A DNA stretch of 64,000 nt, from NCBI GenBank assembly GCA_963713805.1, contig CAVQNF010000002.1, forward strand, positions 1 to 64,000, given 5' to 3'. The stretch comes from an uncultured Alphaproteobacteria bacterium (lineage in GTDB: Bacteria; Pseudomonadota; Alphaproteobacteria; Rhizobiales; Beijerinckiaceae). This document shows, one piece after another, positions 20,178 through 54,205 of the stretch. The notes beneath the pieces are model-generated. The model was not told where the DNA came from. It saw only the letters and a list, made by a program, of their open reading frames with translations, and did not search any database. How positions within the stretch are numbered: the stretch's first letter is position 1; each line of letters opens with the position of its first letter. Both the position numbers and the translations under genes were made by a program.

Positions 20178-22445
20178 TCAGAAGCTCTTCGACAGCCCGG
20201 CGAGGATCGTGCGCCTTTGCCCGAATTGCGGCGCCGCGACCCCGATGCCGGTGCCGTTGCGAAGCTCGTATTTGCGGTCCGTGAGGTTGATCATGTCGAG
20301 GCGGGCCGTCATCTTGCCCATTCCGGGCGCCTCGAACTCATGCTTGATGCCGGCGTTGACCTGCACGTAATTCGGCTGGCGCTGGGTGTTGGCGAAGCCC
20401 GATCTCAGCCCCGAGCCGGAGATCAGATCGGTGGTGAGCAGCGTGTCGACCGAGCCGATAGGAGGCGCCGCCCGAGATCGTGAAGCGCTGGTCGTGATCG
20501 AGATAGACCCAATGGATTCGCGACGAAGGCGAGCTCGTCGGCGGCGAAGAAGAACTGGCTCGAGATGATGTTCTTTCCTTGCGCGCGCGAATAGGCGAAA
20601 TTTCCGTAGAGTGAAAGATTGTCGATCTGGTAGGAGGCCGTGACCTCCGTCCCGTAGACCTTCCCATGCTGATAATTGAAGGGCGCGAAGACGAGCGCCT
20701 GGCCGAATTGGCCTTCATCGATCAGATCATTGGCGCGTTTGTAATAGGCGTCGAGGCCGAGCTGGAAATCGGGTCCGAATTTCTGGATGACGCCGGCGTC
20801 GAAATAATTCGCGCGCTCGGGCTTCACGGGAGCTATCCGCGGTGACGCTCGGAGCCGCCGTCGTGTTGGCGAATTTGGAGATCGTCTCGGGTGCGATCAA
20901 TTCCAGGGGCGGGGGCGTGAAATAGCGCGCGTAGCCGAGATGGACGGTGGTGCCGTCGAGCGGCTTGTAGACGAGATTGACGCGTGGTGAGAGCTGGTTC
21001 TTGTCGATGAATTGGAAGCTCTCGTCGAAGCTCGCGCCGTAGTTGAGCGTCAGCTTGTCGGAGATCTTCCACTCGTCCTGCGCGTAGAGGCCCGCGAGAT
21101 AGCCGATCTTCCTGCTGTTGTCGGAGATGGCGAAGGGCTGATCGATCGGGTTCCCGTTCGCGTCGAGCGGCAGCACGGTCGACAGATTGCTCGAGCGCGC
21201 GCGTTCCACATCGGCGAAGAAGCCGGCGCGAAAGGTGTGCGACGGATCGATCTGGTAGCTCAGATCGCCTTGAAGGCCGTTGGCGAAATTCTCATGGCGC
21301 ACATTGGAGGCGACGCCATTGAACAGGACGATCGCCGACCGGATCGGGGAAGAAATGCGTCAAGGTGTATCGGCTGAAATAGGCGAGCTGCATGTTCAGG
21401 TCGCCGAGCGATTTCTGCAAGGCGAGGATGTTGAAATTCGAATTCCTCCAATTGCTGCTCGCGCAGGCCCGCCGAGTTGAAATCCGAAATGCCGAAGGCG
21501 GTGAAGGCGGGCATCTGCCCGGGATTGTTGGGAAGCCGGAATTGGCTCACCGCCGTTCCGGAGATGAAGCTCAAGCGCGTGCTCTCGTCGATGATGCCGG
21601 AAAGGTAGAGAAAGCCCCTGCCCTGCTCGGTGAAATCCTTCACCGGAACGAGCGAGTGGGTGGGATTTTCGATGCCGATGTTGTTCTGGAGGTAGCTTCC
21701 GGAAACGAAGTAGTCGAGCTTTCCGGTCGAGCCCCCATAAGAGAAGCTCGGCAGGAAGGTCTGGCGCTGCCCGCCGTAAATCGACACTTCGCCACCGGGC
21801 TCGAGCGTTCCGCTCTTCGTCTCGATGTCGACGACGCCGGCGGTTCGGTAGCCGTATTCGGCCGGCAGCGCTCCGGTGATCAGATCGATGCGGCGCGCGA
21901 AGCGGGTGTCGAACAATTGCGAGAAGCCGCTGATCGTCTCGGGGATGATGATGCCGTTGATCCGAAATTGCAGGTTCGCATGATCGCCGCGCACATGGAG
22001 CTGGCCGAAGGAGTCCTGGGCAACGCCGGGCGCCTGAAGCAAGGTCTGGCTGAGCGATGCATTGTTGCCGAGCGGCTGGGTATCGATCGCCTCGCGGTTG
22101 ATCTCGTAGCTCGAGGCGCCGACCGCGGTCGAGATCTGGTTGCGCGCCTGGTCGAGCCGTGCGGCCGTGACCGTGATGTCGAACCGGTCGCTTTGCCCGA
22201 CTTCGGTCACCACGCTTCTCGTCGGACCGGGCTGCACGGCCGGGCCGCTGGTCGCCGGCGCGGCGGGCTCCCCGGTGCCCGCTGTCGTCTGAGGCGGGGC
22301 GGTGCTCGCAGGGGCTTGAGCGAAGGTCTGGGCTTGAGCGAAGGAGGTGAAACGAAACCAAGGCCCAGGAGGAGACAGAGGAGGAGACAGAGGAAGAAAC
22401 GCCTGAAGGCAACGAAAAAAGCGAAAGGCACCGGGGACACTCCAT
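20178..22445 (-). pseudogene. TonB-dependent outer-membrane receptor, at least 6 frameshifts
   Basis: Plug and barrel segments are spread across frames (VTAARLDQARNQISTAVGASSYEINREAIDTQPLGN...; RHENFANGLQGDLSYQI...; ANYFDAGVIQKFGPDFQLGLDAYYK...). The C-terminal ...RRTILAGLSKSF* carries the TonB-box-end aromatic residue. Signal peptide FFLCLLLCLLLGLGFVS. Confidence 0.75.
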
Positions 22446-38289: not shown

Positions 38290-39006
38290 ATGCGTTTCGC
38301 TCTCTGCCTCGTTCTCGCATTCACGGGCTCGACTCGCATGGCGAATGCGGCCTCGCTGCAAGTCTCGCCGGTGCTCGTCGAGGTGACCGCTCCCGGAGCG
38401 ACGGCGACCATCACGGTGCGCAATGACGGAAAGGCGACGCTCGCCACGCAGTTGCGCGTTTTCCGCTGGTCGCAAAGCGACGGCGAGGAGCGGCTCGAGC
38501 CGACCGAGGATGTCGTCGCCAGCCCGCCAGCGGTCGAATTGAGGCCGCAGCAGGATTATGTGGTGCGCATCGTGCGCACCACGAAGGCGCCTGTGGTCGG
38601 CGAGGAATCCTATCGCCTGTTCGTCGACGAGCTGCCCGACACGCAGCAGATTTCCGGGGTCAAGCTCGTCGTTCGCCACTCCTTGCCCGTGTTCTTCGAT
38701 GCGCCCGATGCCGCGCCGCCGGACCCGGCGTGGACGCTCGCGCGGACAGGGCGCGGCCTCGTATTGAATGTCGCCAACCACGGCGAGCGGCGCATCCGGC
38801 TTTCGGCCGTCAGAATTGGCGACGCCACCGGACGTACACTGGCGTTGAACGAAGGGCTCGTCGGTTACGCGCTCGGACGCTCGACCATGAGCTTCCCCAC
38901 GAGAATCGCGGGCTCGGCCCCCAGAAACGGCACCAGGATCTCGATCAGGGGGAACACCGAGCAAGGAAGCTTCAGTGCGACGGCGGTGGTCCAGGCCACG
39001 CGCTAG
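38290..39006 (+). CDS. Pilus assembly chaperone (PapD/CsuC-like)
   Basis: Signal peptide MRFALCLVLAFTGSTRMANAA. LQVSPVLVEV...TITVRNDG..A...QLRVFRW..............LRPQQDYVVRIV are PapD-like N-domain features. GGAGGTGA RBS. Confidence 0.8.
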   Translation: MRFALCLVLAFTGSTRMANAASLQVSPVLVEVTAPGATATITVRNDGKATLATQLRVFRWSQSDGEERLEPTEDVVASPPAVELRPQQDYVVRIVRTTKAPVVGEESYRLFVDELPDTQQISGVKLVVRHSLPVFFDAPDAAPPDPAWTLARTGRGLVLNVANHGERRIRLSAVRIGDATGRTLALNEGLVGYALGRSTMSFPTRIAGSAPRNGTRISIRGNTEQGSFSATAVVQATR

Positions 39007-41428
39007 CACGCTTATCATCACGGGATTCGTGTCCATCGCGGTCCTGCGCGTCACCTCACCGGCTTTTGCCGATCAGGAGCGCGGCTTGCAGCTGGAAGTG
39101 CTGATGAGTGGCCAAACCCTCCACCTCGTCGCCGCCTTTCAGCAGCATGAGGACGGCGCCCTCACGGCAACGCGCGCCGAGCTCGAGGAGATCGGGCTCA
39201 GGGTGCCGCCGAGCTTCGCTTCAAGCGACGAGGTGCCGCTGGCCGAGCTTCCGGGCGTTCGCTACCGCTACGATGTCGCCCTTCAGATCATCGATTTCGA
39301 AGCGCCGGAGACGCAGCGTCTGCCCAAGGATTACGACGCCGCGCGGTCGAATGCGGCAAGCGCCTCTGTCGACCGCTCGAGCAACGGCTTTGTGTTGAAC
39401 TACACGCTCTTCGGTTCGGGAGGTCGGGACCGTTTCGCCGACTGGCAGTACCAGGGCGCTTCCGCCATGCTCGACGCGCGCTTCTTCAGCACCTTCGGCG
39501 TCTTCTCCCAAACGGGAATCGTCGCATCGAAATCCTTCGACCCCAGCACCTCCGAAAGATTGCGCCTCGATAGCACCTGGAGCTATTCGGACCCCGACAC
39601 GCTCGTCACCTACAGGGTGGGCGACACCATCTCCAGCGGGCTTGCCTGGACACGGCCTATCCGGCTCGGCGGCTTCCAGGTCCAGCGGAACTTCGCCTTG
39701 CGTCCCGACCTCGTGACCCTGCCCTTGCCGAATGTCAGCGGCAGTGCGGCGGTGCCCTCGACGGTCGACGTCTATGTCAACGACGTGCGCACGATTTCGC
39801 AGGACGTGTCGAGCGGACCTTTCCGGATCAGCAACGTGCCGATCTTCAACGGCGACGGAGATGCGCGCGTGGTGGTGCGTGACGCATCCGGACGCGAAAT
39901 CGAAACGACGCTGCCCTTCATCGTGTCGAGCAAGCTCCTGCGTCAAGGATTGTTCGACTACTCCATCGAGGCCGGATTCCCGCGCCTCGATTACGGGAGC
40001 CGCTCGGATGACTATTCAAGAAAGCCGGCTGGCTCCGCCAGCGCCCGTTATGGATTGACCGATCGCGTCACTGTCGAGGCGCACGCCGAAGGAACGACCG
40101 GATTCGGCAATGCCGGCGTCGGCGCGGTTTATGGGGTGGAGAGCATCGGCCTCTTCAGCGCGGCGTTCAGCGGCAGCTGGCGCACCGGCTCGATGGGTGC
40201 GCAGGCCTACGCCGCCTTCGAAACGCAAATCTTCGGCATATCCTTCAACGCTTCCACGCAGCGGACCTTCGCGAACTACAATGATCTCGCTTCGGTCACG
40301 GCTCAACCCTTTCAGCTTCTCACGCCGCAAACCAATCAGCTCGCCTCCTTCCAATCCTATCTCAACCCAACGTTGCTTCCCGGCGTCCTCGGTCCCACGC
40401 CGACGGTCTCGCTCAAGCCATCGCGCGCGCTCGATCGCGTCTCGATCGGAATTCCTGCTCCCTACGTCGGCGGCTCCGTCAATCTGGGCTACGCCCATGT
40501 CGATGACGCGAGCGAGGGCCGCAGCCAGATCGTGAACGCCACCTACACACGCCAGATCGTGCACAACGGCTCGTTCTACGTCACCGCCTATGGCGATCTC
40601 GACCACCACAAGAATTTCGGCATCTTCGCCGGAATCTCAGTCCTGTTCGGCAACGACATCACGGCCTCGGTCGGGGCGAGCCACGACCACAACGGCTCCT
40701 ATGTGGCGGCCGACATATCGAAGCCGCTGGGCCAGGAACCGGGAAGCTATGGCTGGCGGCTGCGCGATATCGAGGGGAGCGGCGATCAGGCTCAGCGCTC
40801 CGCCAGCTTCGGCTACCGCGCCAACGAAGGCCAGATCCAGGTCACCGCGACGGACGGAAAGGGCAGCGCGAACGGCACCGCGCAGATCGACGGAGCCCTG
40901 GTGGCGGCGGGAGGAGGGGTGTTCATGACCAACCGGATCGACGACGCCTTCGCGGTGGTGGATGCCGGGGCACAAAATGTCGACGTCCTCTACGAAAACC
41001 GCGTCGTCGCCGCGACCAACTCCGCCGGCCTCGCCATCGTGCCGACGCTGCGCGCCTATCAAAGCAACAAGATTTCGATCGATCCGCGCAATCTTCCCGT
41101 CAACGCCGCGATCGACACGACCCAAGAGGTCCTGACGCCTTCCGATCGCGCGGGCGTGGTGGTCAATTTCGGCATCAAGACGGATACGCACTCGGCTATC
41201 GTGGTCCTGCACGATCGCGATGGCCATCCGCTACAGGCAGGTTTGCGCGGCTCGTCGGGAGAAGGAAAGGAGTTTTTCGTCGGCCATGAGGGGCGCGCCT
41301 ACATCATCGGCCTTGCCGCGAGCAACGTCGTGACCGTGCGTCGGCCCGACGGAGAATGCAAGGCCGCTTTCGATTACGCCCCGCGCGGCGATGCACAAGT
41401 CGTCATCGGCCCGGTGACCTGTCAATGA
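38975..41428 (+). CDS. Fimbrial usher (outer-membrane, PapC/CsuD-like)
   Basis: Intact 817-aa ORF. GTG start overlaps the chaperone end. Usher-like plug and barrel composition. C-terminal ...DGECKAAFDY...PVTCQ has the Cys pair typical of usher C-domains. Confidence 0.85.
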   Translation: MRRRWSRPRASTLIITGFVSIAVLRVTSPAFADQERGLQLEVLMSGQTLHLVAAFQQHEDGALTATRAELEEIGLRVPPSFASSDEVPLAELPGVRYRYDVALQIIDFEAPETQRLPKDYDAARSNAASASVDRSSNGFVLNYTLFGSGGRDRFADWQYQGASAMLDARFFSTFGVFSQTGIVASKSFDPSTSERLRLDSTWSYSDPDTLVTYRVGDTISSGLAWTRPIRLGGFQVQRNFALRPDLVTLPLPNVSGSAAVPSTVDVYVNDVRTISQDVSSGPFRISNVPIFNGDGDARVVVRDASGREIETTLPFIVSSKLLRQGLFDYSIEAGFPRLDYGSRSDDYSRKPAGSASARYGLTDRVTVEAHAEGTTGFGNAGVGAVYGVESIGLFSAAFSGSWRTGSMGAQAYAAFETQIFGISFNASTQRTFANYNDLASVTAQPFQLLTPQTNQLASFQSYLNPTLLPGVLGPTPTVSLKPSRALDRVSIGIPAPYVGGSVNLGYAHVDDASEGRSQIVNATYTRQIVHNGSFYVTAYGDLDHHKNFGIFAGISVLFGNDITASVGASHDHNGSYVAADISKPLGQEPGSYGWRLRDIEGSGDQAQRSASFGYRANEGQIQVTATDGKGSANGTAQIDGALVAAGGGVFMTNRIDDAFAVVDAGAQNVDVLYENRVVAATNSAGLAIVPTLRAYQSNKISIDPRNLPVNAAIDTTQEVLTPSDRAGVVVNFGIKTDTHSAIVVLHDRDGHPLQAGLRGSSGEGKEFFVGHEGRAYIIGLAASNVVTVRRPDGECKAAFDYAPRGDAQVVIGPVTCQ

Positions 41429-42387
41429 ACGGGTTTCACCGCCTCCTGACGGTGGTTCTTCTCGGGCTCAGCTTGTGGTGTTCTCCAGCGGGCATCGAGC
41501 GCGCCGGGGCGCAAAGCTGCACCTTGAGCGTGACGAACGTGGCCTTCGGTTCGGTGGACGTGACCGCCAATACGGGCTCGAGCACGACGGCGACACTGAC
41601 GGTCGCCTGCAGCGGCGTGATCTTGCTGCCCGTGCAGGTTTGCATCAGTCTCGGCCCGGGCTCGGCCGGCGCGAACAGCCCCTCCGACAGGCTGATGGCG
41701 AACGGGGCCAATCAGCTCCATTACGGCCTGTTCTCGGACGCGGCCCATTCCTCGCCATGGGGTTCGTATGTGACGGCGGGTTTCGGCACCGGCGTGACGA
41801 TCACCCTGCCGGCGGGTGGAGGAACGATGACCCGCACCGTTTTCGCCAATGTCCCTTCCGGCCAGCAAACGGTGGTGCCCGGAAGTTATCTGAGCACCTT
41901 TGCCGGGATCAATGCAGAGATCCAATATGGCTTGACCTCCGTGCTCCTCGGCTGCAACACGCTGGCGACCACGAGTTCCGCTTCGTTCACCGTCGGCGCG
42001 ACGGTGCCGACCACCTGCCGGATCACCACCAACAACCTCAATTTCGGCTCCGTCGGCGTGATCGGCGCCAATGTCGATGCAAGCACCAACCTCGGTCCGG
42101 TATGCACCAACGGCACACCCTACACGGTCGGCCTCGACGGCGGTCTTTCAGGCGCGACCAATCCGACGCAACGCAAGATGACGCAAGGGACGGCATTCGT
42201 CCTCTATGGGCTCTACCGCGATGCGGCGCGCAGCCAAGCCTTCGGAAACACGATCGGCACAAATACGGCCGCTGGCACCGGCACCGGGCTTTCGCAGACG
42301 CTCACGGTCTACGGGCGCGTCGCGCCGCAGGCGACGCCGGCGCCCGGCACCTACGCCGACACGATCACCGCGACGCTCACTTATTGA
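41425..42387 (+). CDS. Csu-type tip adhesin / minor pilin with two tandem SCPU domains
   Basis: ATGA overlap with the usher. Signal peptide MNGFHRLLTVVLLGLSLWCSPA. Two SCPU repeats, each ending ...TLTVYGRV...TYADTITATLTY. Confidence 0.75.
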   Translation: MNGFHRLLTVVLLGLSLWCSPAGIERAGAQSCTLSVTNVAFGSVDVTANTGSSTTATLTVACSGVILLPVQVCISLGPGSAGANSPSDRLMANGANQLHYGLFSDAAHSSPWGSYVTAGFGTGVTITLPAGGGTMTRTVFANVPSGQQTVVPGSYLSTFAGINAEIQYGLTSVLLGCNTLATTSSASFTVGATVPTTCRITTNNLNFGSVGVIGANVDASTNLGPVCTNGTPYTVGLDGGLSGATNPTQRKMTQGTAFVLYGLYRDAARSQAFGNTIGTNTAAGTGTGLSQTLTVYGRVAPQATPAPGTYADTITATLTY

Positions 42388-42432
42388 AGGATGGTGTGGA
42401 CTCGATCTGAACGCATCCGGCTCAGCTCAGCT

Positions 42433-42723
42433 CTATGCGAATTCGTGCGCTCGCGTCACCTCAAAGGGATGGTCGATCAACCGCTCCATCTTCTCCACGA
42501 AGCGCTGCGTGCGCGGCAGCTCCGCGTGGACTTCGAATGCCGCCTCGTCGATCCAGCGCGAGTGAATCCAGAAAAGACGAGGATCGCGGGTCGACCGAAA
42601 GGCCCCGATCGCCAGGCAACCGGGCTCTTCCCGGACCGGCGGCACCTGTTCGGCGAGCGCCGCCGCGACCGCGGCCTCCTCCCCTGCTCGGGCATGGAAG
42701 CGGGCGAAGATGAAGAGTTCCAT
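42433..42723 (-). CDS. Antibiotic-biosynthesis-monooxygenase (ABM) domain protein
   Basis: MELFIFARFHARAGEEAAVAAAL...EPGCLAIGAFRSTRDPRLFWIHSRWIDEAAFEVHAELPRTQRFVE: ABM/Dabb fold signature. 96 aa. Confidence 0.7.
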   Translation of the reverse strand: MELFIFARFHARAGEEAAVAAALAEQVPPVREEPGCLAIGAFRSTRDPRLFWIHSRWIDEAAFEVHAELPRTQRFVEKMERLIDHPFEVTRAHEFA

Positions 42724-43106
42724 CGGAAAGTTCCTTCTCTTACGTCGTTCAGGAGGCCGAGCGCGGGCATTTCCAGAATGCCGAGCTTACTGCTCGTCGT
42801 GACGCCTGAAAACGAAAGGGAGCTGCGACCGGTGGGTGGGAAAAACCGATCGCAATTCGGCAAAGCCGGTCGCGGCGGTTTCTTTGCCGAGCGTTCCCAT
42901 GATCTGCACCGGCTTGTCTGGGGCGCCCCTCTGCGCACGTCCGGATCCATCCGGTTTTCCCGCGAGTTTCGTGTATTTCCAATTCAAATTGAAATCTGTT
43001 TTATCAATTCTTCTTATGACTGATCAATCATAGTGAATATTTATTATGAATACTTAGGAAAAAAGATGATCCTGCGACGTTTTGCAAGTGTCGATAGGAG
43101 GTCACC

Positions 43107-43865
43107 ATGAAAGTTTCATTGAAGCGGGCGCAAGGCGTTCGACTGTCGTTGCTGTCCGTGACCGTCGCGGCCTTGCTGGGCGTAAGTCATGCGGCTCTGG
43201 CCGCGAGCGCAGGCGCAGGTGGCGGCGCGAGCGCCGGGGGCGCAGGCGGCGCCGGAGCCGGCGGGGGTGTCGGCGCGAGCGCCGGCGGCGGTGGAGGAGT
43301 CGGCGCCGGCGGGGGTGTCGGCGCGAGCGCCGGCGGCGGCGGAGGCGTCGGAGCCGGTGGGGGTGTCGGCGCGAGCGCCGGCGGCGGTGGGGGCGTCGGA
43401 GCCGGTGGAGGTGTAGGCGCGAGCGCCGGCGGCGGTGGGGGAGTCGGAGCCGGCGGAGGTGTCGGCGCAAGCGCCGGCGGCGGTGGGGGCGTCGGAGCGG
43501 GCGCTGGCGTGGGCGCTGGCGGCGGTGGGGGGGGCGTCGGAGCGGGAGCAGGCGTGGGCGCTGGCGCAGGCGGTGTCGGAGCGGGCGGAGGTGTCGGCAC
43601 GAGCGCGAGTGGCGGTGCCGGTGCCCAAGTCGGTGGGTCCGGAGCTTCCACGAGCGTGGGTTCCGTGAGTGGCGTGGGAAGCGCGCCATCCTCGGCGGGC
43701 ATCGGAGTGTCCTCACCGGGTGCGGCTCAAGCCAGCCTCGAGGGAGTGCAAGGATCCCAGCTCCGCTTGATGCTCAAGCGTCGTTGCCCGACGATCATGG
43801 CGAATGTCAGCGCCTTCGATGATGACCTCGTGCACCTATGCCAGCTCTCGGCAAGGCTCAGGTGA
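43107..43865 (+). CDS. Secreted glycine/alanine-rich repetitive protein
   Basis: AGGAGG RBS. Signal peptide MKVSLKRAQGVRLSLLSVTVAALLGVSHAALA. At least 5 copies of the 16-aa unit GVGASAGGGGGVGAGG. Non-repetitive C-terminus ...RCPTIMANVSAFDDDLVHLCQLSARLR. Confidence 0.6.
   Translation: MKVSLKRAQGVRLSLLSVTVAALLGVSHAALAASAGAGGGASAGGAGGAGAGGGVGASAGGGGGVGAGGGVGASAGGGGGVGAGGGVGASAGGGGGVGAGGGVGASAGGGGGVGAGGGVGASAGGGGGVGAGAGVGAGGGGGGVGAGAGVGAGAGGVGAGGGVGTSASGGAGAQVGGSGASTSVGSVSGVGSAPSSAGIGVSSPGAAQASLEGVQGSQLRLMLKRRCPTIMANVSAFDDDLVHLCQLSARLR
43262..43620. repeat. 48-bp in-frame tandem repeats (gggggtgtcggcgcgagcgccggcggcggtggaggagtcggcgccggc, 5 or more units) inside the Gly-rich gene
   Basis: Direct repeats visible at 43262, 43310, 43358, 43406 and 43454, with degenerate copies to about 43620. 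Confidence 0.75.
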
Positions 43866-44150
43866 TTTGATCGTCCTGATTCCCAAGCCGGGAAACCGCC
43901 AGCCGGCGGCTTCCCGGCAGCCGTCACCGAGCTCAAAGCGCGCGATCAACCCACATCGCATCCGGCGTCGATAGAAGAGCTTGCCGTGCGCTCGATGCAG
44001 CCTCCCCCCGATCTGACGAATAATCTCCTGTGCCCTCACCCGGTCTGAACCGGGACGCGGCGTTGAAGCGGCAAAGAGGTGAGAATATACTTTCAGGCGC
44101 GGTGGCGACGTGGGGGATGCCCCGGTTGGCTACGACAGTGGTGCCTCAGC

Positions 44151-45362
44151 ATGAAGCGAGACATCATCCTCATCGACGGCACGTGGAACAACGAAGGTAT
44201 CGGCTTCGACACGAATGTCGCGAAGCTCGATCCGGCGTATAGCCCTTCGAGGCCTTTGATCAAGGCGGTCGCGAGCGACAAGACCCCTCAGCGTTGTTTC
44301 TATCATGATGGCGTCGGAACGGAGGGTCCGTTTCTTCGCAAGCTGTTGGGCGGCGCCATCGGCCTTGGCCTCAAAGCCATCGTTCAAGACGCCTATTCCT
44401 GGCTCGGCCAGAACTATGAAAGCCAAGACGAGATCTACCTCATCGGTTTTTCGCGAGGATCTTACGCGGTGCGCGCGCTCGCCGGATTGATCGGCGCGTC
44501 GGGCATCCCGCGCGGTGCCGACAAGAAGGTCGTGGAGGCCGCGTGGCAATACTATCGCGTAAGCCCATCGGTGAGAGGCGGGAACGCCAACGCCGGATCG
44601 GGCGACCGGAAACGCATCGCCGATTACCGCTCGCTCGAGCGAGAGCAGGCGTTTCACGAGGATCGGAGGATCGTCTGCGTCGCCGTTTGGGACACGGTGG
44701 GCTCGTACGGCATTCCGGCCGGGTTCGGGCTGGCGCCGCTCGCCCGCTACCTGACGCTTGCGCTTTTGGGATTTCACGACACCTATTTCGGAGACCATAT
44801 CGATGTCGGCCTGCACGCCGTCGCGGTCGACGAGCATCGTCGCCCTTTCGTGCCGACGCTTTGGACCATTCCGAAAGGCAAATCCCCGAGGGGGCATGTG
44901 GAACAGACCTGGTTTGCCGGCGCGCATTGCAACATCGGCGGCGGCTATCCCGATGCCGGACTATCCGACGACGCATTCACCTGGATGGTCGCTCGCATCC
45001 AGGCACTGACGACGCTCGAATTCGACGAAAAGGCGTTCGAGGCGCGCGTCGCCCCCGATCTCGACGGAGAGGTCGTCGATTCGACGATAGGCTGGCCGAT
45101 CGACCATCGCTGGCCGCACGACCGGACGGTGCTTTCGCCCGATGCGATCGACCACCAGGCGCTCACCAATTGTTCCAACCCACACGACGAGAACATCAAT
45201 GAGCGGGTACATTGGAGCGTCGCTGCGAAGCTTGGAAGACCCTGCACCTATCTCGGCCGGGCGAACACGCCCTACGGGCCGCCGAATTTGCACCTCCCGG
45301 TGCCCTCGAATCGAATAGCAGGCGAGACGCCCGAGGAGCGGATGATCTGGTCACGGAAATGA
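44151..45362 (+). CDS. DUF2235 alpha/beta hydrolase (T6SS Tle1-like phospholipase fold)
   Basis: MKRDIILIDGTWNN...CFYHDGVGT...IYLIGFSRGSYAVRALAGLI (GxSxG nucleophile elbow). Intact. Confidence 0.7.
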   Translation: MKRDIILIDGTWNNEGIGFDTNVAKLDPAYSPSRPLIKAVASDKTPQRCFYHDGVGTEGPFLRKLLGGAIGLGLKAIVQDAYSWLGQNYESQDEIYLIGFSRGSYAVRALAGLIGASGIPRGADKKVVEAAWQYYRVSPSVRGGNANAGSGDRKRIADYRSLEREQAFHEDRRIVCVAVWDTVGSYGIPAGFGLAPLARYLTLALLGFHDTYFGDHIDVGLHAVAVDEHRRPFVPTLWTIPKGKSPRGHVEQTWFAGAHCNIGGGYPDAGLSDDAFTWMVARIQALTTLEFDEKAFEARVAPDLDGEVVDSTIGWPIDHRWPHDRTVLSPDAIDHQALTNCSNPHDENINERVHWSVAAKLGRPCTYLGRANTPYGPPNLHLPVPSNRIAGETPEERMIWSRK

Positions 45363-45995: not shown

Positions 45996-46466
45996 TCAGG
46001 AAGTTCCGCCGACCGTGGCCGCGGTGCTGATCGTCAACAGCAGGATGAACGCCGCCCAGGCGAGATAGGGGGCCATGAGACAGGCGGCGCGGCGATCGAT
46101 GCGCGCGGCAAGCCAGATGCTGGCGATGACGCAAAGAACGAAAGCCGTCATCACGATGAGTGCGGAAATGGGAGCGCGCACGCCGAAGAACAGCCAGGCC
46201 CAAACCGATTTGAGAATGAATTGCGCGACGAATGCCACAATGGCAGGGCTTCTCGCCCGGTTATCGGGTGAAGACCGCAAGACGAGGTAGAAAGACCCGG
46301 CGAGACAAAGCGTCAGCACCATCCAGATCGTCAGGAACCGATTGCCGGTCGGCACGAACCAAGCATAATCGATCGTCGGATCGAGGCCGGGCATGTCCGG
46401 CGAAATGAAGACATATCCCCAAACGCTCGTGAAGGCGACGCAGACGAACGCCGTCATGAGCGCCAT
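45996..46466 (-). CDS. tspO: TspO/MBR-family tryptophan-rich sensory protein
   Basis: Five-TM protein of about 157 aa with TspO-like motifs (AQFILKSVWAWLFFG; LMAPYLAWAAF). Confidence 0.65.
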   Translation of the reverse strand: MALMTAFVCVAFTSVWGYVFISPDMPGLDPTIDYAWFVPTGNRFLTIWMVLTLCLAGSFYLVLRSSPDNRARSPAIVAFVAQFILKSVWAWLFFGVRAPISALIVMTAFVLCVIASIWLAARIDRRAACLMAPYLAWAAFILLLTISTAATVGGTS

Positions 46467-46852
46467 AGGCCGGTTGGGAGCGCGTCCGGTCTCGTCGAGG
46501 CAGGAAGCGCCTTCGATGTCCTGATCGGCCCCGAATACGCGCGCTCGCACAATCGCGGGCGCGTTCACGAGGAGAGGATTGTTCGTCACGCGCGAAAGGT
46601 TAGGCGCGCTGCCCTGCGAAGGCAATCTGCTGGCCTGGATCAAGGCTGCATCAAGAAAGTTCGGCGGAACGGCGGAGGCAGCATCCACCGGCGGACAAGC
46701 TCTTGTTTCGCACGGTGCGATCCACGCCCGACTCTCGATTTCCCACCGATGTTGAAAGGATGCGGACCATCCCCTCGGTCTGGTCTTCCAATTTGGAGCT
46801 CGCCGACCTTACGAGGGAAGCACGTCAGTGTTTGCCAGACCTTCTGCGCCGA

Positions 46853-47086
46853 TCAGCGGCGGGACGTGGGCTTGGTTCGTCCCGCAACGGCTTCGGCCTC
46901 CCCCTCAGCCTCGTCGCGAGCCTTCCGAAGGCCACGAAGACGGGCCGTCTTGGCGGCCTGGAACGCGACCCGCTCCCTCTCGTCCTTGACGCGCCGTTCG
47001 GACATCCGCACGCGTTCCTCTTCGAGGCTCGCTCGCTTTTTCCTTCGGCGCATCAGTTCATCGGAAGAAAGGTGGTCCTGTGCCAT
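46853..47086 (-). CDS. Small basic protein (DUF4169-like)
   Basis: 77-aa K/R/E-rich ORF (MAQDHLSSDELMRRRKKRASLEEERVRMSERRVKDERERVAFQAAKTARLRGLRKA...). Confidence 0.35.
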   Translation of the reverse strand: MAQDHLSSDELMRRRKKRASLEEERVRMSERRVKDERERVAFQAAKTARLRGLRKARDEAEGEAEAVAGRTKPTSRR

Positions 47087-47179
47087 TCAGATTTTTCCTT
47101 GGCTCGGCGGTTCACCTATGGCCGGGTGTCGCCTGGTTTTCGGTCGCTGTTGCCAACGAGCACGGTCTCCCCTCCGTCG

Positions 47180-47545
47180 CTATTTCAGATGGAGCAGAAT
47201 GTCGGCGCATGCCTGAGGCACGCCGAGGTCTGCCGATTTGCTTCCCGGCATCACGGCCCAGCCCCCCTTCTCCACGAAAGTAGCTTGCCGCCAAATGCTG
47301 GCTTTCTTCAGGTCCGCCAGGTTCGTGGAAGCATCCAGGCTGCGCTGGAACTGGTTGACGCAAATGGGCGCGATCGCCTCGACCACGGCAGTGTTCGCGG
47401 CGGAATATGCCAATTCCCTCGCGGTGCTTTCGAGCATCCAGCCGCCCCATTTGAAGCCGATGATCATCGTCAGAAGGACACCGACAGCGGCCCCTTGAAG
47501 AAGCCGCTTCAGCGACTCTCCTTCCAACATCTCGGGTCGTTCCAT
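47180..47545 (-). CDS. Hypothetical membrane protein
   Basis: 121-aa ORF with one TM segment (AAVGVLLTMIIGF) and normal composition. Confidence 0.35.
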   Translation of the reverse strand: MERPEMLEGESLKRLLQGAAVGVLLTMIIGFKWGGWMLESTARELAYSAANTAVVEAIAPICVNQFQRSLDASTNLADLKKASIWRQATFVEKGGWAVMPGSKSADLGVPQACADILLHLK

Positions 47546-47881
47546 CTCGAATTCCTTATGCGTGAGATCGCCAACAGCGTCGATGATGTTCGCTTTCCGC
47601 CATGAGATTATGCGGACGAAACGACCCCTCGCGGATCACGTTCTTCCGCGAGCGCCTCGCTGGCCATGGCTTTACGTGACGCTCACGACAAAGGCCGTGG
47701 CGCTTTCCCCACCATGCACCCGATCAGAGATTTTGGATAGGACTATCTTGAGGCGTTGCTTTAGATCGACGGGCTCGTGCTTGAGTAAATTCTAGCATTT
47801 CTCCATGGCAGCCACGCGAAAAACGCTGGAACCAAGGATAAATGCACAGGTTGAACCTGCGAACCGTCCTCCTTTGGAGAG

Positions 47882-48100
47882 GTGGACATGGGCAAGGAAC
47901 GAGAGAACGAAGATGATCCGGCCGGCCTGCGCCGGTTGGCCAAGCGAATTGCCGAGCTCAAATGGTGGAGTGAGGAGCCGAAGCCTGGGTCGCCCGCACC
48001 GTCGGAGGAGCGGTCGGAGGAGCCGCCGTCGGAAGAACCGCAGGACCAGGGGGGAGACCAGCAGCAGCAAACGCCCGAGACGGATAGAGGAGAAAGCTAG
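47882..48100 (+). CDS. Hypothetical small acidic protein
   Basis: GGAGAGGTGG RBS and a 72-aa E/P/S-rich ORF. Confidence 0.3.
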   Translation: MDMGKERENEDDPAGLRRLAKRIAELKWWSEEPKPGSPAPSEERSEEPPSEEPQDQGGDQQQQTPETDRGES

Positions 48101-48111
48101 CCCCAGCCTCG

Positions 48112-48312
48112 TCACGCGGTGCGATCTGTTGCCTCATAGCGAGTTGTGCCATCGTTCACCTTCCCGGCTGGCTGCAGGGTTGGAGAGCAAGGTTTTTTCA
48201 CCCCGGCGGTTTTGTTCTTGCCGGCGGGTTGACCTTCGTCGGGTGCGCCTGCCTCGACTTCCTTGATCCATTCGGCAAGAGACCCGTCGGAGACACGTTT
48301 CTGACCGTCCAT
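48112..48312 (-). CDS. Hypothetical small protein
   Basis: Strong GAGGTGAGGAG RBS immediately upstream of the ATG (MDGQKRVSDGSLAEWIKEVEAG...). 66 aa. Confidence 0.3.
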   Translation of the reverse strand: MDGQKRVSDGSLAEWIKEVEAGAPDEGQPAGKNKTAGVKKPCSPTLQPAGKVNDGTTRYEATDRTA

Positions 48313-48888
48313 GGCTTGGCTCCTCACCTCGAGAAGCGCTTGCAAACCTTTCATCAAGCGCGTTCCCCAAACCGACCACCAATATCTAGGTTGCTCTGTT
48401 TTCGGTTGCAACGAAGTGGATAAGCTGTGGGAAATGCGTGCGAAACCGCTTCGCAAGCGGGAGTGTGACGAGGGCCAAAACGTCACCGGTTTGGGTGGAC
48501 GGATGGAGTCGGAGCCGACGCTGTTTTCAACCCCAGCCAAACCTGCGCAAGGGACCTTGATGGCTTCGGACGCCTTGCCACGAGCAAAAAGCAGCCGGGG
48601 CGCGTCTTTTCTCCATGGTCTCGCTAAAAAAATGGCCCAGCCGGCATTCAGGCGCGCCGGTGAGGGCCAAGGGAGGTTGGTGCCATGGGCCTTCGGGGAA
48701 TATCAACCCTCCCCATGGCGGATGAACCTTATTACGTCGTCAAGTACAAGTAAAACAGGGGTGCGGCCGCGGGAATGAGGACGCCCTCGCCTGCGTAATC
48801 TCCCTTGCTCATGGATGTCGGTGGAAGCCTCACTCAGCCGCGGCCAGCGAAAAGCCTGCGGGAAAGCACGTCCCGCGGAGTGGTATTC

Positions 48889-49947
48889 TCACAGAGGACC
48901 TGCGGAGACCGCCTTGCTCAACCGAAGAAAGAAAGGATGTTCGGGGCATGCCGACGGGCATGTTTCTCCAGCGGCGCAGGGGAGGCACCCAAAGCTCGCC
49001 GCCGCGCCCGTGCTCTCTTTGGCATCCGCTTGCGGCAGGGACGGACCCGTCAAGCGCAGGCCTCCGCCGATGACGCTCTGCTTGCTCGTGAGAAGAAGCT
49101 CCATTTGCAGGAGCGCCTGGCCCATTCCCGCCGAGGTGCTTTCCGAAGCGTCGACGGCGACGCGATCCTTGAAGAGCAGATCATCGAGAACGGCCGGATT
49201 GGCGGAGAGGGCCGCTTGCGCGGGTGGCGCGACGGGAGCGCCGGACGGCTGGCAAGCGCTCACGCCCTTGCGGCCGAGAAATCCGACCGCTTCGCCTGTC
49301 TTCGTGTCGATCCAGCTCTTCTGCCGACGATCCCAGACCAGGATTTGCCCGCTGTCGGGGTCGAAGGCCCGCCCGGGATTGCCGGCGTCCTGCTTGGCTT
49401 GCGTGATCCTCGCCATCAGCCCTTCGCTGGTGACGCGCTCCGAATCCGCCAGTTCGAGCTTCGGCGGGGGCGGAATGACTTCGCCGTCGCTCGCCTTGGC
49501 TCCCTGGTATCCCACGGCCGTGTCGGTCTTGGAATCCACCCAGGTTTTGCGCGTGCAATCCCAATAAAGGCTCTGGCCCGTGTTGGGGTCATAGGCCCGT
49601 TCCGGGTTGACGAATTGCTGCTTGGCCTGGGTCAATCGGGCGGGCTGTCCGCTTGCGCCGGCGCGTTTCGCTTGCGCAAGTTCACGCACTGGCGGAGGGG
49701 GGATGATGGTGATGCCGCCGCCTTGAGCATGCGGGACCGGTGCCCCGATCAATTGTGCGGGAGGGTTTGGCCCAGGGTTCGGTACCTGGGTCATCTGGGC
49801 GTGCGCATTTTGGGCGACGCCGGCGGCCGCATAGAGGAGCAGCGAGCACAAGGCGATGGTTGTTCCTCGTCCCGGCGCGCATCTGGCAGGGCCGCGAAGG
49901 GCTCGCAGGAAGGCGCTGTCGAGAAACGCCGTAATCGGCATGATCAC
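48889..49947 (-). CDS. Secreted protein with two roughly 45-aa internal repeats
   Basis: Repeats LTQAKQQFVNPERAYDPNTGQSLYWDCTRKTWVDSKTDTAVGY and ITQAKQDAGNPGRAFDPDSGQILVWDRRQKSWIDTKTGEAVGF. N-terminal hydrophobic leader. The Cys-rich C-terminus may be out of frame. Confidence 0.45.
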   Translation of the reverse strand: MIMPITAFLDSAFLRALRGPARCAPGRGTTIALCSLLLYAAAGVAQNAHAQMTQVPNPGPNPPAQLIGAPVPHAQGGGITIIPPPPVRELAQAKRAGASGQPARLTQAKQQFVNPERAYDPNTGQSLYWDCTRKTWVDSKTDTAVGYQGAKASDGEVIPPPPKLELADSERVTSEGLMARITQAKQDAGNPGRAFDPDSGQILVWDRRQKSWIDTKTGEAVGFLGRKGVSACQPSGAPVAPPAQAALSANPAVLDDLLFKDRVAVDASESTSAGMGQALLQMELLLTSKQSVIGGGLRLTGPSLPQADAKESTGAAASFGCLPCAAGETCPSACPEHPFFLRLSKAVSAGPL

Positions 49948-51873: not shown

Positions 51874-52309
51874 GCGCGGCGGCATCCACGCCGTGCGCCC
51901 CCGCATCCGTTCCGGAGATCGCGCGGTCGCATCGTAAATGAAATCCCCTTGATGCTCGTTGCGCTCGCGAGAAATCTATGTGGAAGATTCACCCAGTTCC
52001 GATGTGCGCATGGCGCTGCACATATGGCGCAGCGGTCTCGCCGTCAGATCGGCGATGAGGGTACTGGAACAAAAGTGTTCGGGAAATCCGGGGATTGCTC
52101 CTGAAGTAACTCTCGTTATCGCGTCTGTATAGGCTCGCCTGCCCCTTCGGATTTAAAATTACGGGCGGTGTAATTTCAATAATCCGTCCGGTTCAATTTT
52201 ACAAAAAACAGCAACCATTGGCTCGACCCCTGCAACGGAGCCGGTATCGCGGCGCTGATGTTCCGCTCTGGACCATGCATGCGGCCGCAACTCGGTTTTG
52301 TGGGTCAAA

Positions 52310-53300
52310 ATGGGAAAAACGAACGTGTACATCAGGACAAATTTGCTGGCGGCAGTTGCAGTCGCGGCATTGGCGATTGCCGGCCCCGGCTCAGCCTGGG
52401 CGCACGGGCACGGCGAGGGTGGTGGCCATGGCGACGGCGGTGGCCATGAGGGCGGCGGTCACGACGGCGGTGGCCATGAGGGCGGCGGCCATGAGGGCGG
52501 CGGTCACGACGGTGGTGGCCATGAGGGCGGCGGCCATGAGGGCGGCGGCCATGAGGGTGGTGGTCACGAAGGCGGTGGTCACGAAGGCGGCGGCCAGTGG
52601 CGGTCACGAAGGCGGTGGTCACGAAGGCGGTGGCCATGGCGGCCATGAGGGTGGCGGTCACGACGGTGGCGGTCATGGCCACGATGGTGGAGGTCATGGC
52701 CACGATGGTGGCGGTCATGGCCACGATGGTGGTGGTCACGGTCACGATGGTGGTCACGGTCACGATGGTGGTCACGGCCACGACGGTGGCAAGGGCCACG
52801 ACGGCGGCAAGGGCCACGACGGCGGCAAGGGCCACGACGGCGGCAAGGGCCACGACGGCGGCAAGGGCCACGACGGCGGCAAGGGCCACGACGGCGGCAA
52901 GGGCCATGAGCACGGCCACGATGGGAAGGGCCACGAGCACGGTCACGAGCACGGCCATGGCGGCGGCAACAACGGAAACGGGAACACAGGCTCCGGCGGC
53001 ACGAACGGGACAGGCGGCAACAATGGCTCCAACAATGGCGCCGGCGGAACAAGCCCGGGCAACGGGAGCAATGGCACCAGCGGAAACAACGGGACGAACG
53101 GTTCCGCCGGCAACAGCGCCAGCGGCAATAACGGCGCGAATGGATCCAGCGGGGCCGCTGCTTCCTCGAGCGGATCGAGTGGCAGCAGCGACCCTTCGGG
53201 CGCAGGCGCGGGGAGTGGCGAAGGAAGCTCGAAGAGCTCTTCCGGCCTGAACTGCAGCTACACGACGAAGCACGTCTGGAGGTGCAAGGCGAGCTACTGA
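52310..53300 (+). pseudogene. Secreted His/Gly-rich repeat protein (candidate metal-binding), frameshifted by an intra-repeat deletion
   Basis: Signal peptide MGKTNVYIRTNLLAAVAVAALAIAGPGSAWA. About 12 HEGGG/HDGGG units, then a roughly 5-nt deletion at about 52598 shifts the frame. The homologous continuation is in the 52218 ORF frame: HGHDGGG x4, KGHDGG x7, HEHGHDGKGHEHGHEHGHGGG, an N/G/S/T-rich tail, and ...LNCSYTTKHVWRCKASY*. Confidence 0.6.
52420..52940. repeat. 15-bp (HEGGG/HDGGG), 21-bp (HGHDGGG) and 18-bp (KGHDGG) coding tandem repeats
   Basis: Direct repeats such as catgagggcggcggtcacgacggcggtggc and ggccacgacggcggcaag x7. Confidence 0.75.
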
Positions 53301-53770
53301 ATTCGTCTCGGTATTGCCCTCGAGCCGATAGGTCGCGCGAGCGGGGAGGACATTTTGATCGGCGGGCTCGTCCGCGGCCCGCCGTCAGCCTTGCTCCGGG
53401 GCGCCTTCTATCGCCCGCGTGTCGGAGGCGTGGACGTGCTGGCGGGGCTCGCGCTCGCAAGTTTGCGCGACAACCGCGAAGAGGGTGATCCGTCGACGAA
53501 GCGACGGCGCTCGCCCGCCGAATGCGGCGCGATGCTTTGCGCGGCGTCTTTCACTTCATACGCGGCGCCGAGTTCACGAGGTCGATGCCGCATCCCATAG
53601 TCTAACCATTGGGCCACGGACCACCTGAGCCTGCACGAAGTTTTGACAAGGCTCCCGAATGGGCCCAAAAATCTCCTGATGAAAAACCGCGTGATTTTCG
53701 GCCACGCCACGGGCATCCCATGTTTGCGTCAGGCCACGGGTTTTGGGCTAAGACACTTAGTTCAAGGGAG

Positions 53771-54205
53771 ATGACGATGCTCAAGCTTGCTTTTGTCACG
53801 TCTTCCGTTCTCGCTCTTGCCGCGCCGGCTTTCGGCCAGGACAGCGCGCAGATCCAGGTGCTCAACGATCGTTTTTCCGAGGCCTTCAATCGGGGCGACG
53901 CAGGGGCCGTGGCGGCCATGTACGCGGATGATGCGGTGGTATTGCCCGCCGGCTCGCCACTGCTCAGGGGGCGGGAGGCCATTCAATCTTACTGGAAGAA
54001 GGGAGCCGAGCAGCTCGAGGGAATGCGGCTGACGACCGTCGACGTCGAGCCGCTTGGAGATCGTGCGGCGCGCGAGATCGGGACATTCGTCCTTAAGACC
54101 AAGGCCCAACCCCCGCAGGAACTCGTCGGCAAATACGTGGTCGTTTGGAAGAAGGAGGGGAACGACTGGAAACTCGCGACCGACATCTGGAACGCCAACA
54201 AATAG
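53771..54205 (+). CDS. SnoaL-like / NTF2-fold (DUF4440-like) periplasmic protein
   Basis: Signal peptide MTMLKLAFVTSSVLALAAPAFG. ...LNDRFSEAFNRGDAGAVAAMYADDAVVLPAG...GREAIQSYW... is an NTF2-like fold. Confidence 0.6.
   Translation: MTMLKLAFVTSSVLALAAPAFGQDSAQIQVLNDRFSEAFNRGDAGAVAAMYADDAVVLPAGSPLLRGREAIQSYWKKGAEQLEGMRLTTVDVEPLGDRAAREIGTFVLKTKAQPPQELVGKYVVVWKKEGNDWKLATDIWNANK

Follow-up and report, generated by a model that had tools for sequence, protein, structure and literature searches.

In a 64,000-nt stretch of DNA from an uncultured Alphaproteobacteria bacterium of the Beijerinckiaceae (assembly GCA_963713805.1, contig CAVQNF010000002.1, positions 1 to 64,000; hereafter the window), a gene at 52325-53300 of the forward strand was found to encode a secreted protein with His/Gly-rich repeats. 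Orthologues of it occur in a clade of soil Hyphomicrobiales that have not been cultured, where the gene is conserved and stands alone. Our joint reading, to which we assign a probability of roughly 50%, is that the gene encodes a conserved, Sec-exported and disordered His/Gly metal binder, that it is driven by an alternative sigma factor, and that the window copy carries a 5-nt deletion. A secreted His/Gly-rich repeat protein had been proposed here earlier (the original prediction); it is a genuine coding gene, and its sequence is as described at the time.

The His/Gly-rich gene and its relatives

The tract 52200-53300 is very GC- and G-rich (GC 0.70-0.72, GC skew up to +0.32), and Tandem Repeats Finder identified arrays with periods of 15, 18, 21 and 39/40 nt in it, including an 18-nt array at 52776-52906 with 7.3 copies that are 99% identical. 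As written in the window, the gene requires two reading frames. The first begins with the signal peptide MGKTNVYIRTNLLAAVAVAALAIAGPGSAWA, followed by HGHGEGGG...; after the end of the signal peptide (...IRTNLLAAVAVAALAIAGPGSAWA) come ten H[DE]GGG units, then QWRSRRRWSRRRWPWRP, and the frame ends at TGA 52646-52648. What follows is encoded in the +1 frame: HEGGG, HGHDGG(G), KGHDGG and HEHGH units, then an Asn/Gly/Ser/Thr linker and the C-terminal ...LNCSYTTKHVWRCKASY, with the stop codon at 53300. The restored protein has 326 amino acids (aa) counted from GTG 52325, with ~42% Gly, ~14% His and two Cys, and its repeat part (H[DE]GGG / HGHDGG(G) / KGHDGG) covers ~190 residues. We counted 17 H[DE]GGG units, 3 HGHDGGG plus 3 HGHDGG, and 6 KGHDGG plus 1 KGHEHG, followed by HEHG units, against about 12 HEGGG/HDGGG, 4 HGHDGGG and 7 KGHDGG reported before, numbers that were thus approximately right. 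The start at 52298 given at that time was only the mechanical TTG of a list of open reading frames (ORFs); in our alignment A2 the ATG of the orthologues aligns with GTG 52325 of the window, and ATG 52310 is a possible alternative start. Read from the sequence, the signal peptide contains neither a lipobox Cys nor a twin-arginine motif, which points to export by Sec with cleavage by signal peptidase I. The features of the gene and its upstream region are as follows.

52219-52234, forward strand: candidate sigma-54 (-24/-12) promoter element TGGCTCGACCCCTGCA with GG-N10-GC spacing, the only TGGC-N8-TGCA in the 64-kb window; putative function
52270-52297, forward strand: weak promoter-like motif GGACC-N20-GTT of the type used by ECF (extracytoplasmic function) sigma factors, from manual comparison of upstream regions; low confidence for the window copy
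52325-52402, forward strand: start at GTG 52325, or alternatively at ATG 52310; signal peptide MYIRTNLLAAVAVAALAIAGPGSAWA of the Sec type, with the A-W-A cleavage site just ahead of HGHG; n-, h- and c-regions read from the sequence; common to all family members
52403-52596, forward strand: first H-x-GGG repeat block in the frame of the start codon, with unit variation at codon position 3 only
52596-52597, forward strand: site of the 5-nt deletion, TGGGG missing, from alignment with eight near-identical contigs
52597-52648, forward strand: out-of-frame tail QWRSRRRWSRRRWPWRP and TGA stop of the truncated product (107 aa from GTG)
52599-52967, forward strand: remaining His-rich repeats in the +1 frame, namely HEGGG, HGHDGG(G), the KGHDGG array 52776-52906 and HEHGH units
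52968-53246, forward strand: Asn/Gly/Ser/Thr/Ala-rich low-complexity linker, (NGS)n or (GGTGSN)n in orthologues; predicted with low confidence by AlphaFold2 (predicted local distance difference test, pLDDT, ~30-40)
53247-53300, forward strand: C-terminal motif LNCSYTTKHVWRCKASY and stop, Cys codons 53253-53255 and 53283-53285, predicted beta-hairpin; C-x9-C with ...WRC[KR] kept in all subtypes

The gene immediately upstream in the window encodes a BrkB/YihY-family membrane protein, which falls in a 90%-identity cluster of 11 sequences; contigs were taken for four of its members. Seven contigs from JGI (L084-L088, L091 and L092) show the gene order of the window, with BrkB followed by the His/Gly gene and then by a DUF4440 gene. 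A genome scan with the upstream BrkB returned four metagenome-assembled genomes (MAGs; L001-L004) with BrkB proteins 82-84% identical to that of the window, labelled as Beijerinckiaceae, Hyphomicrobiales or uncultured Alphaproteobacteria, the nearest labelled MAG being Beijerinckiaceae. In three of them (L002-L004) an intact single-frame ORF of 349-440 aa lies directly downstream of BrkB, and in L001 the gene breaks off at the contig end within the first repeats. The three complete ORFs share the module order of the window gene, that is a signal peptide (…LAGPGSGWA/HGGHG…, with the slash at the cleavage site), HxGGG, HGHDGG and KGHDGG repeats, a (NGS)n or (GGTGSN)n linker, and a C-terminal motif which in the orthologues reads C[SG][YF]T[RQ]KHVWRC[KR]. 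The locus is therefore not a non-coding one in relatives, as would have contradicted the original prediction: intact ORFs with signal peptides occur downstream of BrkB both in the more distant MAGs and in the near-identical contigs.

Two further subtypes, besides the BrkB-linked subtype 1, were found by a DNA-level metagenome scan with a profile of the N- and C-termini. L093 and L096 contain EGKGH repeats and a GGTPGT linker; L093 ends in …CTYGFENFWRC with a stop codon much further on, and L096 is cut by the contig end. Subtype 2 (L094, L095 and L097) is characterized by Met-containing HGHGGMSGG and RDHDHDHDGNGHGHGHGG repeats; L095 (430 aa) and L097 (426 aa) are complete and end in …CHHTRFATWRCKAVY, and L094 is cut by the contig end. 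The loci L081 and L090 lie ~340 kb apart on contig_6027, representing one genome with two paralogues, the BrkB-linked subtype 1 and the Met-containing subtype 2.

That the sense strand is the coding one is indicated by the repeat units themselves. Comparison of the 17 H[DE]GGG units shows no variation at the first two codon positions and variation at all five third positions, a pattern that in the sense frame holds before as well as after the frame break. Gene callers annotate an antisense ORF of ~120-235 aa, and never the sense gene, in all nine contigs L084-L092 (e.g. L084 5500-6123, minus strand), which is the one argument for taking the antisense ORF as the real gene or the locus as non-coding repeat DNA. 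We regard this as extremely improbable, because in the sense frame the signal peptide is canonical and the non-repetitive N- and C-termini are conserved, its start and stop are kept across ~20 contigs, the indels relative to short-read contigs are in frame except for the 5-nt one, and the antisense ORF has no scoring relatives.

As a consequence of the antisense calls the family is nearly absent from protein databases. A word-indexed search of 5.8 billion clusters with the termini profile returned only one C-terminal and one frameshifted N-terminal fragment, and the full-length reconstructed protein retrieved only unrelated HDGGG-containing proteins from the same database, swamped by low-complexity candidates. 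An exhaustive HMMER search for the C-terminal 233 aa among 1.84 billion representatives yielded 24 matches; the ten inspected were all unrelated low-complexity proteins, and in none of the 24 did the best stretch extend to the Cys loop. Megablast against plasmids gave no match, and a search with the antisense ORF for mis-annotated copies returned nothing. Highly repetitive GC-rich genes of this type are under-represented in protein databases.

The 5-nt deletion

The DNA alignment is clear-cut: the window lacks exactly TGGGG between 52596 and 52597 (CCA/GTGG, compared to CCA/TGGGG/GTGGCGG in the relatives). Eight near-identical contigs (L084-L088, L090, L091 and L092) read GGCGGCCATGGGGGTGGCGG where the window reads GGCGGCCAGTGGCGG, and at the deletion site itself CCATGGGGGTGG compared to CCAGTGG; across the gap, the relatives have GGCGGCCATGGGGGTGGCGGTCAC (H-G-G-G-G-H) and the window has GGCGGCCA and GTGGCGGTCAC on either side of the five missing positions. 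A frameshifting 5-nt deletion had been predicted, and its size and place are borne out; the bases are not those expected, as TGGGG was lost from a H-G-G-G-G-H-E unit and not TGAGG from a HEGGG unit. Nor is the proposed origin by repeat slippage supported, since 5 nt is not a repeat unit, there is no flanking direct repeat, and slippage of the 15-, 18- and 21-nt units present here gives in-frame changes in multiples of three. Two other descriptions of the site were discarded. A single-G insertion at 52597, prompted by one 40-nt copy in the 39-nt repeat, is contradicted by the near-identical contigs in which TGGGG is present, and an apparent 6-nt in-frame polymorphism (L089 'CCATGGCGG') arose when BLAST slid onto a neighbouring repeat, L089 being without that unit.

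As written, the window allele would yield only a 107-aa truncated secreted fragment. The tail created by the deletion (QWRSRRRWSRRRWPWRP, 52597-52648) is Arg/Trp-rich. Should the allele be real, the cell would export ten His/Gly units with this strongly cationic end attached, which is unusual and probably meaningless.

The window is 97.7% identical to L084 over 6 kb, and all other indels relative to the short-read contigs L084-L087 are multiples of three (9, 12, 18, 24 and 39 nt). Complete alleles range from 339 to 357 aa, so that the repeat number is highly polymorphic but stays in frame. Beyond the gap the shifted frame is open over a further 700 nt, in which the sequence closely resembles the intact alleles and shows no decay, and the lesion is therefore either a very recent mutation or an assembly error. 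The frameshift is private to the window sequence and may be an artefact. We give a little less than an even chance to the gene being intact in the organism and the gap being an assembly or consensus error, caused for instance by long reads or by mixed strains with differing repeat numbers; differences in repeat number among co-occurring strains are a known hazard for consensus calling. Several and different frameshifts are present in the gene in long ENA metagenome contigs of the same population (L089 and L090) and in the paralogue L081, which suggests consensus indel errors in those assemblies, and the seven JGI contigs are all intact in a single frame as far as they extend. A clean 5-nt loss is, however, unlike the typical single-base homopolymer error, and real strain-specific mutations are to be expected between sequences that differ by ~2%. 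The quality of the surrounding sequence points both ways. A TonB-dependent receptor gene at 20338-22237 (minus strand, ~20.4-22.2 kb) is broken over at least three reading frames, either as a pseudogene or as a sign of assembly indel errors, whereas each of the conserved genes between 44 and 52 kb aligns with its relatives in a single unbroken frame, and the few 1-nt indels relative to L084 fall outside BrkB and the conserved genes 44139-45359, 46002-46622 and 48892-49947.

The ENA contigs with frameshifts belong to ERZ25039470 and ERZ25039465 (L089 5371-6447, L090 5371-6497, L081 6001-7600), and in L081 the adjoining ABC-transporter genes are fragmented too. The pieces of the TonB-dependent receptor are a Plug domain at 21260-22237 and barrel segments corresponding to profile positions 114-253 (20727-21302) and 268-353 (20423-20827).

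A functional frame change, either by programmed +1 ribosomal frameshifting or by on/off phase variation through repeat slippage, might be considered for a gene so repetitive and with repeat numbers that vary between strains. It is nevertheless very hard to credit, and is in practice excluded by the intact alleles and the multiple-of-three units: the orthologues and near-identical alleles are all single-frame, units of 15, 18, 21 and 39 nt leave slippage unable to switch the frame, and no conserved slippery site or stimulatory structure is present. Shuffled sequence folds at least as well as the RNA of the 5' leader or the 3' flank. The frameshift is specific to the window sequence, may be an assembly error, and carries little biological weight.

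Upstream region, protein properties and possible function

Among the window and L001-L004, the last ~110 nt before the start are kept, and the rest of the 430-nt intergenic region is not conserved. The candidate sigma-54 element TGGCTCGACCCCTGCA agrees with TGGCACG-N4-TTGCA in 10 of 12 positions. The intergenic regions of L001-L004 retain it, with 12 of 16 positions invariant in alignment A2, and it is identical in L084-L087. Its first base lies 104-106 nt ahead of the start codon in L002-L004, and likewise ahead of GTG 52325 in the window. The pattern TGGC-N8-TGCA occurs once in the 64 kb, compared to 2.25 occurrences expected by chance on both strands. The other subtypes carry an ECF-type motif instead, located 60-66 nt before the start. 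L093 and L096 have a perfect GGAAC-N16-CGTT, ~66 nt from the ATG; in L094, L095, L097 and L081 the motif reads GGAAC-N16-CGGT or CAGT, and subtype 2 also contains GGAAC-N18-GTT. By sequence, this motif appears to match the EcfG general-stress consensus GGAAC-N17-20-GTT (PMC6599016). In the homologous place, subtype 1 retains ECF-like remnants, TGAAAC…GGTCA in L001 and L004, GGGAC-N17-GTT in L002 and GGACC-N20-GTT in the window. These motifs suggest that the genes of the family stand alone, depend on an alternative sigma factor and encode envelope proteins induced by stress or a signal. The promoter in use would be of the sigma-54 type in the window lineage and of the ECF/EcfG type in the other subtypes.

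Short palindromes of differing sequence lie in the same aligned place ~100-150 nt upstream of the sigma-54-like element (window 51960-52150; A2 columns 300-345): CTACTC-N3-GAGTAG in L001 and L004, TACA-N5-TGTA in L002 and TAAC-N4-GTTA in the window. Either an activator site or coincidence may explain them. Matches to Rfam across 50-56 kb were at chance level only.

The mature proteins have masses of 29-37 kDa and an isoelectric point of ~6.0. Those of subtype 1 are very hydrophilic (grand average of hydropathy, GRAVY, -1.2 to -1.5), with 44-61 His, 33-49 Asp+Glu, 41-43% Gly and no Met, values in the range that defines hydrophilins (Gly above 6%, high hydrophilicity). They contain three aromatic residues, all within the last 15 residues, and Cys solely as the C-terminal pair. 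One His is found per 5-7 residues, always beside Asp or Glu and with Gly3 in between, and the calculated charge is about +38 at pH 4.5 and about -24 at pH 7.5. AlphaFold2, run in single-sequence mode, gave a mean pLDDT of 41 with coil throughout and no helices, and the mature protein is accordingly predicted to be almost wholly disordered. The sole ordered part is in the last 15 residues, a C-terminal beta-hairpin of the strands LNCSY and WRCKA with pLDDT ~87. As this model places both Cys on paired strands, a disulfide closing the hairpin would be expected in the oxidising periplasm.

Metal binding is the most likely function judging from composition, and the original prediction of a periplasmic metal-binding or storage protein is reasonable on that basis. 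The flexible His-Asp/Glu-Gly3 array is of a kind suited to multidentate binding of Ni, Zn, Cu(II) or Co and, with Met added in subtype 2, makes a multivalent metal binder or buffer the best-supported model. The protein would bind or buffer divalent transition metals (Ni, Zn, Cu(II) and Co) with high capacity and low to moderate affinity, either in the periplasm or on the cell surface, and the hairpin stapled by its sole two cysteines would serve as an anchoring or interaction module. Repeat numbers change freely, in frame, among strains that occur together. If tens of metal ions were bound per chain, abundant soil Alphaproteobacteria that are not in culture would have a new way of buffering or storing metals in the periplasm. 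The protein would then also be a design found in nature for secreted polymers that sequester metals, a brush of His-Asp/Glu-Gly3 units on a small anchor closed by a disulfide.

Several observations weigh against the joint reading, among them the frameshifts in the ENA contigs and the broken TonB-dependent receptor gene described above. None of the conserved neighbours, in the window or in the relatives' loci, is a gene for metal homeostasis, and no sigma-54 activator (GAFTGA and related motifs) was found in the window or in close loci. The promoter assignments are made from motifs, the sigma-54 one was spotted post hoc, and the ECF-like motif of the window is weak. Searches of Pfam, NCBIfam and PDB sequences with four intact members (threshold E <= 1 for Pfam and NCBIfam) gave nothing save a chance collagen match at E = 0.13. 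Finally, the His/Gly richness fits a hydrophilin-type stress protein about as well.

Such a protein would resemble hydrophilins or LEA proteins and act in the periplasm as a general-stress protectant (desiccation, osmotic or acid stress) through its disorder, high hydration and pH-switchable charge, with only incidental metal binding. We see this as a possible but rather doubtful alternative. The Gly content of ~42%, the low GRAVY, the charge swing, the full disorder predicted, the EcfG-like motifs of L093/L096 and subtype 2, and the lack of metal-related genes among the conserved neighbours are all in line with it, and a stress- or signal-induced envelope gene fits a metal-stress sponge and a hydrophilin-type protectant equally well. 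However, a His every 5-7 residues paired with Asp or Glu is far more specific than hydrophilicity needs, and the Met in the His repeats of subtype 2 (HGHGGMSGG) points to metal ligands. In addition, the ECF-like motif of the window is degenerate, and the Pfam KGG (GsiB/YciG) stress repeat had no match in the His/Gly proteins.

The C-terminal hairpin could itself be the active part, as a cationic disulfide-stapled peptide that is released or as a ligand of the outer membrane or lipopolysaccharide, with the His/Gly region as carrier or pro-region. The hairpin is the only ordered element in the AlphaFold2 model and the most conserved non-repetitive part, retained in all three subtypes as C-x9-C with W-R-C-[KR]. 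Thanatin- and bactenecin-type hairpins are the peptides to which it may be likened, a comparison that serves as a lead only. We consider this unlikely, as no processing site, protease, transporter or immunity gene is conserved nearby, and the repeat region is itself under clear protein-level constraint.

The functionally closest known proteins are the disordered periplasmic metal sponges of the SilE/PcoE type; physico-chemically, hydrophilins and His-rich dehydrins are closest. No family match was obtained, and the protein is thus not a member of the HypB/UreG, GroES/HspA, ZraP/Spy/CpxP, SilE/PcoE or KGG-repeat families but of a narrow one that has not been described; the sole sub-threshold Pfam match was to the plant GRP family on the frameshifted ORF (19.3 bits, cut-off 30). 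SilE is described as an intrinsically disordered periplasmic metal 'sponge' (PMC5008109), and the His/Gly protein resembles SilE and PcoE in Sec export, in disorder (here predicted), in its many spaced His ligands and in a presumed role as multivalent periplasmic buffer. SilE and PcoE use His and Met motifs for Ag(I)/Cu(I) and are encoded in the sil and pco metal-resistance operons, whereas the subtype 1 protein has no Met and carries His beside Asp or Glu. It is also ~2x larger, contains 42% Gly and a predicted Cys-stapled hairpin, and shows neither a resistance-operon context nor homology. ZraP, a zinc-binding periplasmic chaperone of E. coli and Salmonella expressed from a sigma-54 promoter under ZraR (PMC4987338), is likewise periplasmic with Gly/His-rich segments, although for the His/Gly gene a sigma-54-type promoter is only predicted. 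ZraP is a folded Spy/CpxP member with an alpha-helical LTxxQ-type domain, which the His/Gly protein lacks according to Pfam and NCBIfam, and its ZraSR two-component system is encoded adjacently, whereas neither zraSR-like genes nor an enhancer-binding protein gene is found near the His/Gly gene.

A resemblance to Hpn/HspA/HypB-type proteins had been noted in the original prediction. This holds for composition, the very high His content and presumed Ni/Zn capacity being shared with Hpn, Hpn-like, the HypB stretch, the HspA C-terminus and the UreE/SlyD tails, but not for homology, none being found in Pfam, NCBIfam or PDB. Those proteins are cytoplasmic; Hpn is tiny, and in the others the His-rich part is a tail of a folded GTPase or chaperone domain, whereas the His/Gly protein has a signal peptide and contains neither a G3E GTPase (cobW/HypB/UreG; Pfam and NCBIfam) nor a Cpn10 domain (Pfam). 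No hyp, ure or hup genes are among its neighbours. Going by its description, Hpn is further set apart by a length of ~60-70 aa, His runs, Cys pairs and no signal peptide, compared to 29-37 kDa, spaced His, two C-terminal Cys only and a Sec signal peptide in the His/Gly protein.

Hydrophilins, His-rich KS-type dehydrins, LEA-like and GsiB/KGG-repeat proteins are hydrophilic and disordered, and plant KS-type dehydrins bind metals via His. The His/Gly protein shares with these groups extreme hydrophilicity, a Gly-rich, disordered and repetitive sequence and, in some members of its own family, a putative link to a stress sigma factor. It differs from them in being exported, in a far higher His density, in the predicted C-terminal disulfide hairpin and in showing no homology. 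Tentatively, and with clearly less confidence than in the joint reading, the proteins may be viewed as an undescribed, lineage-restricted family of exported, disordered His/Asp/Gly polyampholytes with a disulfide hairpin and hypervariable in-frame repeats, alternative-sigma-dependent and hidden by antisense calls, which would act in soil Hyphomicrobiales as a high-capacity periplasmic metal reservoir or buffer or as a pH-switchable envelope protectant.

Gene neighbourhood

In the window and the near-identical strains, the His/Gly gene lies between the BrkB/YihY-family gene upstream and a gene for a DUF4440/SnoaL-like protein downstream (53609-54205). In L002-L004, L082 and L083, the downstream gene encodes a conserved FG-GAP/VCBS repeat protein of ~580 aa (L002 8152-9903, L003 8773-10572, L004 9168-10916, L082 913-2655); the window lacks it, so that synteny breaks off right at the stop codon of the His/Gly gene. 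Subtype 2 genes are located just downstream of Opp/Dpp/Nik-type ABC permease and ATPase genes, followed in L097 by a NuoF-like (Complex1_51K) gene. The Opp/Dpp/Nik-type neighbours are suggestive of nickel or peptides, though non-specifically. L093 and L096 have unrelated neighbours, RecJ and a Rieske oxygenase.

Further upstream, the window contains a chaperone-usher pilus cluster at 38975-43865, with an Usher/PapC protein of 817 aa and a SCPU-domain protein (41356-42387). The pilus cluster is followed by a protein with a Tle1-like phospholipase domain of the type VI secretion system kind (44079-45362); among the ORFs scanned there were no type VI secretion system genes. In the window, the TspO gene is separated from the conserved gene that comes next by ~2.2 kb (46690-48890) with three ORFs without Pfam matches (46703-47605, 47805-48266 and 48311-48778), whereas these two conserved genes are adjacent in L004 and ~50-110 bp apart in L002 and L003.

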